A DNA stretch of 64,000 nt from Candidatus Poribacteria bacterium (GTDB lineage: Bacteria > Poribacteria > WGA-4E > WGA-3G): NCBI GenBank assembly GCA_965215265.1, contig OZ244048.1, positions 1,248,001-1,312,000 of the forward strand, in the 5' to 3' direction. Made by a program: the position numbers and the translations under genes. Shown here piece by piece: positions 1,620-28,730 of the stretch (the stretch's first letter is position 1; the number at the start of each line of letters is the position of its first letter). The notes beneath the pieces are model-generated. The model was not told where the DNA came from and made no database searches. It saw only the letters and a list, made by a program, of their open reading frames with translations.

Positions 1620-1739
1620 GGTTCGTATATCTCCGTACGATCAACGCCCAGTGGGTTGCGAGATAGGTATTCTTTCTCGCAACTTATGTAATAATAACTC
1701 GTGTGTAAATCTCGTCGGAGATGACTTAGATAATGTCTT
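1620..1739 (-). repeat. 84-bp dispersed element (reverse copy) carrying a nested 36-bp hairpin element at 1648-1683
   Basis: TTCGTATATCTCCGTAC...CTCGTGTGTAAATCTCGTCGGAG; 28+56 bp = 84 after removing the insert. Confidence 0.8.
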
Positions 1740-3564: not shown

Positions 3565-3902
3565 CTTCTGTATACAGGAGCCCAATAAAGGCTGCTGCTA
3601 TGTCAAATCCTGTGTACATCTCGTCGGAGACTTTTGATGCTATGAATCTAAACATCGGAAAACTCCGACGAGATTTTTCGTATATTTCAGCCCAATAAAG
3701 GCTGCTGCTATGTCAAATCCTGTGTACATCTCGTCAGAGACTTTTGATGCTATGAATCTAAACATCGGAAAACTCCGACGATCTATAGATTGGCAGGATA
3801 AGGTAATCTTGTCTCATGGACAGACAAAGCATACCGAACCTGCCAAGATTTACACACGAACTATCAAAGCATAAGCGTTTATGGTACGGAGATATACTAA
3901 AA
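3565..3902. repeat. Cluster of 84-bp elements: reverse 3565-3648, partial forward 3644-3676, reverse 3675-3758, forward 3754-3902 interrupted by a hairpin element (about 3782-3845)
   Basis: Near-identical ~110-bp tandem duplication; GAATC ends shared by back-to-back copies. Confidence 0.8.
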
Positions 3903-12019: not shown

Positions 12020-12192
12020 GAATCTAAACATCCGAACCCTCCGACGAGATTTGTACAGGGTTTTACATAACAAACGCCTCTATTGGGCTGCAGTAGACGA
12101 AAAGACGAGATTTGTAAAGATTTCAGAAAAACAGACTGCTTTAATGAACGCCTTAGCACAAATCTCGCTAGAGATTTACGTTGTTATGATTC
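12020..12192. repeat. Two 84-bp elements in opposite orientation (12020-12103 forward, 12109-12192 reverse)
   Basis: Ungapped alignment to consensus; CGAGATTTGT...ACAAATCTCG inverted arms. Confidence 0.75.
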
Positions 12193-23323: not shown

Positions 23324-23590
23324 ATGGAACGTATTAATCCTGTTTTCTGGGCCCCGCCAGCGGTACATAAGATAAGCGTTGATTGGGAGAAAACGGTTCG
23401 GGAGCAAGGCGGGGATCCTGCCGAGATTGAGAAGCTTGCGAGAAAAGTGGTTGAAGAATCATAACCCAGTGAGGCTCTGACGAGATTTACACACGAGTTA
23501 TCAAAACATAGACGTTGATGGTACGGAGATATACGAAAGAGCGTAGAAGTTATCATACGCTACTACACTGCAAAAATTATGAAAGGATAA
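23324..23590 (+). pseudogene. Small (60 aa) ORF interrupted by an 84-bp element at 23456-23539
   Basis: MERINPVFW...ARKVVE | element (brings TAA) | SVEVIIRYYTAKIMKG*; removing 84 bp gives one open frame ending just before the M23 gene. No clear SD, so the gene is tentative. Confidence 0.55.
23456..23539 (+). repeat. 84-bp dispersed element (subtype A)
   Basis: GAATCATAAC...CTCTGACGAGATTTACACACG...GTACGGAGATATACGAAAG. Confidence 0.9.
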
Positions 23591-26337: not shown

Positions 26338-28440
26338 TTAGCTATTTGTCAATTCGGCGAGTTTGGTTAGATGCCAATTGACATCCTCTAATGCCTCATA
26401 AACGACCCCACCTTCAACGTTCTCAGGCATTGGGAGTCCGAGTAAGTAGCAGAGAGTTGGGGCGACATCGACGACGCGAACTTGCCGCTTGAGTGCGATG
26501 CCTTCTCTAACGCCGGCTCCCGATAAAATAAACGTGGAGTGTTGTCCGCCAATGCCGAAACTTACAGAGGGTAATTGCTTGCCATGCGCGCCGTCAAACT
26601 CGGGTCTAAGTGCGTAGACTACGTCTCCGACTAACTCTCCGTGTAGGTTCAACATTTCTGCATCGGCACGCGTTACAGCTAATGTGAAGGGCTGTCGCCC
26701 TGTTTCTGGATCTTGGTAAGCGTGAAGTGCGTCGATAATTTCGCGCTGAGTTGCTTCATAGGCTTCCAGTGTAACGATGCCGTTGGGTTCGCGGCCGGCT
26801 AGATTGATAAAGATATGCACGAGTCCGACGTTGACAGCGCGCGTTTTCGTCCAGTCTATTTCCCCGTCTGTCGTTCGGACGATGAAGCCTGTTTCTTCGA
26901 GGACCTTTTCAATATCAACGGCTTTAAATTGGTTAGGTGTGCCGCCGTGGTCTGAGCAGACGAGGATAACGGTGTTTTCATCGGCGAGCTGCATCAAACG
27001 TCCAATCATCCTATCAACAGATTCATAAGTACGGCGGATTCCTTCGCGGCAGCGGTGGATGGTTTCTGGTGCGGCACCACTAATTTCATCGGCTTGGCTG
27101 AGGAAGAAATGGCTGGCGTAATCGGGTGCATGGGATTCAACCATGAGGACATCCCAATTGTTGATTGTTGCGAGGTGCGTTGCAACATCCGCGAGCCGTT
27201 GATGGTGGTATTCAAGAAGTTCAAAATAGGTATCGTCATCGATCTGACCGAGCGCGTCGCGTGCCGGATTTTGAAGGAAAGAGCCGACCTCGGCATCAAT
27301 CTGGACTGCTACTGTTGAAGGCACGGTGTATTCTTCTCGTGGCCAAACCTGTGGTACGAACAGCTCAAAGGCATCCGCAGTCGGTGTGAGGGTGATAAGC
27401 TTCAGGCGGACGTAACCTTCAACCTCTTTTCCGTCAATCTCATTAGAATCATAACATCGGAACCCTCTGACGAGATTTACACACGAGCCATCAAAGCAGA
27501 AGCGTTGACAGTACGGAGATATACAAAAAAAGGTATCGAGCCACCAATCGCTCCAGTCGCCTACACTGAGTTCTGCGATTCGCTCTGCTCCGGAACGGCT
27601 TCGGCAGATCTGTATTTTGTCGTATCCGTTTTTTCCAGAGGCATATATGAATCCATACGAGACTATACCTAAGGAACCTCCGACGAGATTTACACACGTT
27701 TTATCATAGCATCAGCATTGACGGTACTGAGCTATACGAAAAAACGTTTTGGGTGTTCCTGTTTCGCCGCGGTTCATCTCTTCTCTACCGCGTGCTAGGG
27801 GTTGGATAGTGAGTTCAACTTCCAGGACTGGCTTTTCCGATTTAGGCAAGCGATTCGCTTCGGCACTGTTGGCCAGTTGGAGTGTCACCGCATCTATGTG
27901 GCGTACTTTCTGTAATGCACTCGGATCTAAGGTTTCTGGGTCTCGTTGGCCACCGATAGGGCGCGGTGCCCATTTTCCTGCGACAAAGAGGTGATATCCT
28001 GCAATTTGATGATGGTTTGAGACACCGGGGCCGGTTCCTTCTACCTGAATTCCGGTTTTGACGGTTGGTGGCCAGGACATTTCCCACTTAACAAAGATCG
28101 GTTTTCCGCCGGCACGTTCAACAAGATTCCAGAGGTATTCGGATTGACATAGAGCCGTGTTGATTCCCCAGACGGTTTTGTCGAGTTTTTCGCCGATTGC
28201 TCTGATATTGAAGTCCATGACCTGATGCGTCCCGGGCCATGAGCCTGTGGAGAGAGCGGTCCAACCGGGTGGGGTAAGTGTTGGGAAGAACCCGATCATC
28301 GGTCGGTACACCCCAGTCTGTAGCAGCTGCGCCATATTGGGGGCATGTCCCCAGTCAATGGAATTTTTGACGAGTTCCATGCTGGCACCGTCCATTCCGA
28401 TAATAATTGCGCGTTTTGCAGGTGCGAGTTGTGTCCGCAT
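26338..28440 (-). CDS. Alkaline-phosphatase-superfamily phosphodiesterase/nucleotide pyrophosphatase; one reading frame with two in-frame 84-bp inserts and a single TGA (27712-27714) inside one insert
   Basis: IIIGMDGAS, PTLTPPGW..LSTG, CSDHG, VDVAPTL. ORF-track pieces 27712-28440 and 26338-27324 are in the same frame and the 129 codons between them are open. Confidence 0.85.
27446..27529 (+). repeat. 84-bp element inserted in frame in the phosphodiesterase gene
   Basis: Reads FCISPYCQRFCFDGSCVNLVRGFRCYDS in the gene frame. Confidence 0.9.
27659..27742 (+). repeat. 84-bp element inserted in frame, contains TGA
   Basis: Reads FRIAQYRQC*CYDKTCVNLVGGSLGIVS in the gene frame. Confidence 0.9.
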
Positions 28441-28444
28441 ATTA

Positions 28445-28528
28445 GAGTCAATACATCAGGAGCCTCCGACGAGATTTACACACGAGCTGTCAATACCTAA
28501 GCGTTGATGGTACGGAGATATACAAAAA
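28445..28528 (+). repeat. 84-bp element between the SD and the ATG of the phosphodiesterase gene
   Basis: Minus strand AAAAGGAGCAA|element|TAAT ATG. Confidence 0.9.
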
Positions 28529-28637
28529 TTGCTCCTTTTGGTTTCTGTAGGCGTTAGCGTTGCCTTTGGCTTCAATCTCCCGTTGCCTCCACAAGTGGCA
28601 GGCTAGGTTTTCTTTTTCTCTCCTCGAGGACAGAAAA

Positions 28638-28730
28638 GTGACGAGATAGGTATTCTTTGTCTGTCCATGAGACAAGATTACCTTTTATCTGCCACCCACT
28701 GGGATTACCTTTTACCTGCCACCCATTGGG
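28638..28730. repeat. REP-like hairpin element (second family)
   Basis: CGAGATAGGTATTCTTTGTCT...CAAGATTACCTTTTA...GCCACCCACTGGG shared with 31468-31527, 1648-1683 and (reverse) 3782-3845. Confidence 0.75.

Follow-up and report, generated by a model that had tools for sequence, protein, structure and literature searches.

Can a gene that has taken up three copies of a dispersed repeat, one of them bearing a stop codon, still yield a working enzyme? The question is posed by a gene of the alkaline phosphatase superfamily in a 64,000-nucleotide stretch, here called the window, of the complete 4.83-Mb genome of a Candidatus Poribacteria bacterium, a sponge symbiont (contig OZ244048.1, positions 1,248,001 to 1,312,000). 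A first-pass annotation of this DNA had proposed that the inserts are intron-like or excisable elements, and had offered as its alternative that already-divergent repeat copies had hit the gene and damaged it. It is the second reading that fits the evidence presented below: the locus is probably a young pseudogene, or a gene badly crippled, produced by ordinary repeat insertions.

The gene lies on the minus strand at 26338..28440, running from an ATG at 28438-28440 to a TAA at 26338-26340, and comprises 700 codons with the inserts and 644 without them. It belongs to PF01663 (type I phosphodiesterase/nucleotide pyrophosphatase), the N-terminal open frame matching profile positions 2-126 and the C-terminal frame positions 157-329. 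As first described, the 700-codon frame from 28440 to 26338 is interrupted by a single internal stop, a TGA at 27712-27714, which falls within one of the inserts, copy B. The 129 codons that follow contain no in-frame ATG, GTG or TTG, and the first available start is a GTG at 27324. Orthologs are present in each of the 24 same-family genomes searched, with C-terminal parts 82-90% identical, and intact frames of 643-683 amino acids were recovered from 73 of the 91 loci fetched. The predicted fold of an ortholog from the same genus (mean predicted local distance difference test score, pLDDT, 85.9; predicted template-modelling score, pTM, 0.89) is closest to the PafA/SPAP alkaline phosphatases and the NPP enzymes; a sequence search of solved structures returned no matches.

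The three inserts, which lie on the minus strand in the sense orientation of the gene, are direct copies of an approximately 88-nt sequence, at 28441-28528 (copy A), 27655-27742 (copy B) and 27442-27529 (copy C). Their common orientation and mutual divergence were correctly noted at the outset: the other copies show identities of 72% and 83% with the reference copy, and the 22-nt core of the repeat occurs seven times in the window compared with no occurrence in any of 100 shuffles. Alignment with 11 orthologs at the protein level, and with nine at the DNA level, places the sole large gaps exactly at copies B and C. Both internal inserts are absent from all 11 aligned orthologs, giving clean empty sites of the kind that the first-pass annotation had proposed to look for, and no element match was found inside the gene at the loci of any of these 11 relatives.

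These alignments fix the limits of the two internal inserts. Copy B occupies 27658..27741, following Phe233 (PKTF), and adds 84 nt, or 28 codons, in frame, the hidden Markov model (HMM) match extending over 27655-27742. Copy C occupies 27442..27528, following the Phe of WWLDTF, and is 87 nt long, or 29 codons, in frame and open; with this length the F/E junction is that of 10 of the 11 orthologs, whereas an 84-nt version leaves one codon too many. Between them lies a host segment of 43 codons (27529..27657) that aligns without gaps to all 11 orthologs. Copy A (28441..28528) sits between the native Shine-Dalgarno (SD) sequence and the ATG, and its limits are uncertain by about 4 nt; its length can be given only as 84-88 nt, since the leaders do not align. 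The original description of three 84-bp insertions, two of them 28-codon inserts isolating a segment of about 43 codons, thus stands for copy B and for the segment but has to be amended for copy C, which is one codon longer, and loosened for copy A.

At both internal sites the orthologs carry TTT or TTC immediately 5′ of the insertion point, and copy A, which is preceded by GGAGCAA, starts with a T-run. On these grounds a T-run (TTT^) would be a reasonable insertion target for all three copies. No target-site duplication is seen at the two ortholog-defined sites, only the 5′ T-run. The nearest genomic siblings of copy A are 98.9% (over 87 nt) and 100% (over 80 nt) identical to it, and copy A would therefore belong to a recently active subfamily. 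Over a stretch of 65 nt, copy C matches another genomic copy with 100% identity, and the nearest other copy to copy B is only 85.5% identical. The position of the TGA in copy B reads TTA, one base away from the stop, in the seven nearest family copies. Across the family, however, 223 of the 387 copies have T and 159 have G in the column of its second base, and because G is so common there the comparison does not decide whether the TGA arose in place.

Might the inserts simply be repeat units misplaced during assembly? The abundance of the family, and the way in which short-read contigs break off within it, would be in keeping with this explanation. Nevertheless, contigs from three runs in three studies (X1, X5 and X7) cross the host-element junctions, entering each element by 30-52 nt from unique host sequence, and the junctions are identical in all of them. 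In addition, a second public assembly encodes the same 242- and 328-amino-acid fragments, with matching replacements. We regard an assembly artefact as exceedingly improbable. The contigs end within the repeat, and they can thus reveal junctions but can neither show nor exclude excised forms. In one X1 contig a join omits the 129-nt middle segment exactly (27530 to 27660, side 21); most simply, this would be a tandem array from elsewhere in the genome that has been aligned to two of the copies.

The inserts are members of a large family. A profile search with nhmmer gave 835 matches in the 4.83 Mb (plus strand, 425; minus strand, 410) to a unit of about 85 nt; approximately 497 of these are full length and approximately 129 are cut near model position 60. 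The matches fall into 480 clusters, many of them tandem and head-to-head arrays, and make up about 1.3% of the genome. About 90% of the clusters are intergenic. Element density is uneven, at 4 to 104 matches per 250 kb, and the window lies within a dense zone. There is no replication-strand bias (366 + / 341 -; 59 + / 69 -). The ends of the element, TTTTTGTATA... and ...TGATTCTAAA, are not complementary to one another. With copy A as the query, the family was found in two of 41 related genomes searched, one being its own genome and the other, G004, having the core motif only; the same query did not find the family in the same-genus genome.

The most far-reaching explanation of the locus is that the normal enzyme of 644 residues is produced because the elements are taken out or passed over, whether through RNA splicing, through precise excision from the DNA of some members of the population or through ribosomal bypass. 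Such a process would accommodate the intact host frame, insert lengths divisible by three and the constrained look of the strain differences described below. Group I and group II introns are, however, far larger than 84-88 nt. A search of Rfam at E<=10 gave no relevant match, the only hits being two chance snoRNA matches outside the elements, and RNAalifold found no consensus structure on either strand in 200 of the 387 distinct full-length copies. Mutual information across the alignment identified one column pair with Watson-Crick covariation (26:46), the remaining signal being linkage of neighbouring columns. When single copies were folded and compared with shuffled sequences, z-scores ranged from +1.05 to -2.80 with no common structure, and no inverted repeat was found in the region of the three copies. 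With no Rfam family, no conserved fold and a family that lies mostly between genes in both orientations, nothing in the elements resembles a self-splicing intron or ribozyme.

Nor do the flanking codons suggest bypass. In bacteriophage T4 gene 60 and in the byps of yeast mitochondria, matching take-off and landing codons flank the insert. Here there is no such match: copy B is flanked by TTT and TCG TAT, and copy C by TTT and AAT GAG, with no matching codon at the 3′ end. The present gene resembles those systems and self-splicing introns in that its frame is intact apart from short inserts, one of which bears a stop; unlike them, it offers no codon match, RNA structure or Rfam match, and its inserts belong to a family found mostly in intergenic DNA in both orientations. 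In the contigs of four runs there is no join across an 84- or 87-nt skip, though these contigs break inside the repeat.

How the family behaves inside other genes bears directly on this point. Clusters flanked on both sides by at least 80 open codons on one strand account for 47 of the 480, compared with 1041 of 2000 random positions, and the family is thus depleted in coding sequence. Thirteen clusters are in frame and open, encoding a recurring peptide. As an upper bound, since some lie in leaders, 38 of the 835 matches fall in long open frames, of which 28 are antisense and 10 sense. A hydrophilic peptide, ..RRDLHTS..DDGTEIYEK, recurs among the antisense copies, and it is the one seen in most of the tolerated inserts; the peptides of the sense frame are rich in Cys and hydrophobic. 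In-frame copies with Pfam matches on both sides occur in gcvP (glycine dehydrogenase), a uvrA-like gene, rpoC, glyQS and a PGA_cap gene, and in these five genes the copies sit between domains or in insertion regions as defined by Pfam. The UvrA-like protein, of 2068 amino acids, contains four element clusters. In gcvP the match splits around the corresponding segment in all eight relatives examined (families f1 and f4 and genus g10), and at the element segment the ortholog from the same genus lacks about 24 residues. A random insertion would be both a multiple of three and open with a chance of only about 0.07. That the intragenic copies are nonetheless in frame and open leads us to conclude that they are filtered by translation and that inside genes the family is translated. 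A removal mechanism would make such a filter unnecessary.

The converse pattern, a stop-bearing or non-open element splitting a single Pfam domain, did not occur among the 24 other interrupted candidates examined. Eighteen of these have a Pfam domain whose end or beginning falls only a few profile positions from the junction, as expected of two neighbouring genes, and in the other six (L132-L137) the Pfam match at the junction is lacking or incomplete; about nine more open-flanked clusters lie outside the Pfam test. The lack of a split domain among the 24 candidates, taken with the in-frame copies elsewhere, argues against a general removal mechanism. We therefore consider removal or skipping of the elements very unlikely, and the intron-like, excisable element first proposed is not borne out. 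By the same token, we see only a very slender chance that the family carries an unrecognised small splicing or bypass signal through which the insert-bearing allele still gives a working enzyme. Were this so, a selfish repeat, stop included, could sit in a conserved gene at little cost.

Two of these intragenic cases were recorded in more detail. The glyQS locus (G000:C1:4244340-4247525) holds the alpha and beta parts of glycyl-tRNA synthetase in one frame of 1062 codons, with two element matches (129 nt) exactly in the linker, and the repeat may have fused the alpha and beta genes or may bridge them. At rpoC (G000:C1:1092382-1098132) the beta′ frame has 1917 codons, and an element-derived stretch of 17 residues lies in a long insertion within domain 5.

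Copy A lies in the leader. The orthologs have GGAG or GGA 6-7 nt before the ATG. In the present gene the native SD, GGAG at 28532..28535 on the minus strand, is separated from the ATG by copy A, as had been recognised in the first-pass annotation, and it now stands 91 nt 5′ of that codon. It fronts instead an out-of-frame TTG and a frame of 11 codons. The element brings signals of its own (28448..28467, minus strand): a GGAGG at 28463-28467 and, after a 6-nt spacer, a mini-frame ATG-TAT-TGA at 28448-28456, which stops 7 nt 5′ of the ATG of the gene. This arrangement is general, the 3′ part of the element (model positions ~62-85) having a conserved GGAG-N6/7-ATG-NNN-TGA with the consensus GGAG-N7-ATG-TTT-TGA. 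From its geometry, re-initiation from the copy A mini-frame onto the gene's ATG is conceivable.

Gene leaders are the commonest address of the family, with 56 clusters no more than 5 nt from an ATG that opens a frame of 150 codons or more. Fifty-four of these are antisense and two are sense, copy A being one of the two and hence in a rare orientation. In the 54 antisense leader copies the ATG is preceded by the element end GGAGATATACAAAAA, which supplies an SD-like GGAG and a spacer. A native SD is found 5′ of the leader-borne elements in nine of 56 cases, compared with 11% in random 18-mers; this similarity led us to reject the idea that the antisense leader copies simply split an SD from its ATG.

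Taken together, the observations would be explained as follows. Three ordinary copies of a dispersed repeat of about 85 nt would have entered a strongly conserved gene at T-runs. The elements would be neither introns nor removed; inside genes the family is translated, and selection would retain open in-frame copies. At 28 and 29 codons, copies B and C are in-frame inserts at the predicted edges of two beta-strands in the middle domain of the protein. The TGA of copy B would be one lesion, given that no in-frame start follows for 129 codons. Copy A, from its recently active subfamily and in the sense orientation, would be the second, having displaced the native ribosome-binding site to 91 nt from the ATG. 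At best, traces of a 700-residue protein would be made. It is because these two lesions are independent that we judge a young pseudogene, or a badly crippled gene, to be the most likely state of the locus.

Several observations weigh against this conclusion. The host sequence is free of decay. The first-pass annotation had named a ratio of non-synonymous to synonymous substitution rates (dN/dS) near 1 among the marks of a pseudogene; pairwise dN/dS of the host segments is 0.03-0.08, and the lineage of this genome (G000) has 59 synonymous and 20 non-synonymous changes compared with 76.5 and 38.5 in the same-genus lineage. A strain from another study (X5), whose contigs show 12 differences over 2173 nt (about 0.55%), has the TGA and all three junctions as well. 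Its 11 coding differences comprise seven synonymous and four non-synonymous changes, and the probability of at least seven synonymous changes under neutrality is 0.005-0.036, which hints at constraint after the insertions. All 24 family genomes searched have an ortholog, and loss of the gene would thus be unusual. TGA is the leakiest of the stop codons. Copy B may be old, given that it has no close sibling, and the gene would then have stayed clean in spite of it. Conserved in-frame stops under purifying selection have been reported in bacteria (PMC7918605).

These points would be met most directly if the gene were still in use, with the inserts translated as surface additions, the TGA passed by read-through at low efficiency or expression lowered, and translation re-initiated from the copy A mini-frame. 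The seven synonymous and four non-synonymous changes that separate the strains would postdate the insertions that the strains have in common, no excess of non-synonymous change is seen in this lineage, and essential genes of the same genome tolerate copies that are in frame and open. The mini-frame, ending 7 nt 5′ of the ATG, has a geometry that would suit re-initiation, and the in-frame stops just cited provide a precedent. Against this, the sense orientation is found in only two of the 56 elements that directly precede genes, suggesting selection against the arrangement, and the sense-frame peptides, being rich in Cys and hydrophobic, are unlike most tolerated inserts. In a collection of 5.8 billion proteins no insert-bearing allele without the stop was found among those of 385-1225 amino acids. 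Finally, one of the four replacements between strains, L116F in this genome, affects a residue for which at least 90% of 25 alignment rows have L. Set beside the usual constraint on the family, four replacements are also somewhat many (P 0.025-0.28). Continued use of the gene is, in our judgement, the main alternative but unlikely, and the data fit a gene that may have been constrained until recently, or that may still be weakly so.

The positions of the insertion sites in the protein were considered with the same alternatives in mind. In the ortholog model, the sites fall between residues 235 and 236 and between residues 278 and 279, at the ends of beta-strands beside loops, in a beta-rich middle domain that appears to be accessory and to lie outside the catalytic core. 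The loop next to site B differs in length from ortholog to ortholog. Both features would favour tolerance of the inserts and thus a gene still in use, but as predicted positions they neither prove nor exclude it. An AlphaFold model of the read-through protein, with the TGA read as W and a 25-row alignment, had a pLDDT of 35.5 and was unusable.

If, as we think probable, the gene is one more ordinary victim of a burst of the repeat, the family from which the insertions came is the more useful result. Rickettsia palindromic elements (RPEs) are short, lineage-restricted repeats in high copy number that occur in frame in conserved genes (Ogata et al. 2000, as outlined in PMC10969869). The analogy with them drawn in the first-pass annotation is a good one, as the family enters unrelated genes in frame and, like the RPEs, would form an extra peptide in the gcvP, rpoC, glyQS, uvrA-like and phosphatase-family products. 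The copy between the SD and the ATG, which had seemed to fall outside the analogy, finds its explanation in the leaders as the main habitat of the family. There are differences nonetheless. The single units of about 85 nt are not palindromic, some 90% of the clusters are intergenic, the family forms tandem and head-to-head arrays in a different phylum, and in the phosphatase-family gene one copy bears a stop and another disrupts the leader.

The family also resembles the repetitive extragenic palindromic (REP) sequences, bacterial interspersed mosaic elements (BIMEs) and REPINs of the proteobacteria, in which full and truncated units of alternating orientation lie mostly between genes and are species-specific. 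In contrast to these, the present units are longer and are not hairpins, and many copies lie exactly at gene starts with an SD-like motif. A search for a Y1/RAYT transposase (PF01797) gave no match in this 95% complete genome; the control search gave matches in six of 14 reference genomes. Bacterial MITEs, miniature transposable elements with inverted repeats, among them Correia/NEMIS, ERIC and the Coxiella QMITE, are described in PMC10969869 as giving in-frame fusions, supplying expression signals and inactivating genes. The repeat shares with MITEs its small size and non-autonomous nature. It differs in that neither terminal inverted repeats nor a target duplication were found in 103 solo copies, the duplication being absent at the two ortholog-defined sites as well, and in that no parent insertion sequence was identified. 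The family is thus lineage-specific and mosaic, REP/BIME-like in its arrays and RPE-like in entering coding sequence. A literature search of titles and abstract openings found no description of such repeats in Poribacteria.

The family adds peptides to essential proteins, namely RNA polymerase beta′, glycyl-tRNA synthetase and glycine dehydrogenase, and lies directly 5′ of more than 50 genes with a ribosome-binding-like motif of its own. For annotators it follows that genes that appear split or lengthened in these genomes may be repeat insertions.

Some minor features complete the description. Within the window, the core of another family copy lies at 1700..1721 on the plus strand, and further family cores are found at 3609-3630 (+), 12038-12059 (-) and 23474-23495 (-). 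The intervals 1.25-1.75 Mb and 4.0-4.5 Mb of the G000 genome were singled out for their element density. Two regular arrays were noted, one of five 84-nt units with 38-nt spacers and a period of 122, and one of five units with a period of about 154 (G000:C1:1578933-1579504 and 2976145-2976690); both are probably tandem duplications of a composite unit. In G004, which belongs to another genus of Poribacteria, a core of 25-30 nt was found at seven scored places (for example, L110, L112 and L114), from 226 first-look candidates. Its occurrence there, but not in the same-genus genome, may reflect a patchy distribution, independent loss or horizontal spread.

With regard to the gene itself, two orthologs from two other assemblies, P0136 and P0140, one of them on a 6.1-Mb contig, end early with an identical frameshifted tail after WEMSWPP, reflecting either a true common frameshift or a homopolymer error of long-read sequencing. 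Just 5′ of the leader of the gene, at 28676-28729, there are two tandem 27-nt units that are 93% identical. Words related to these units (…ACCTATCCTGCCAAC…) border element clusters elsewhere in the genome, and the units look like a second module of the mosaic repeats.

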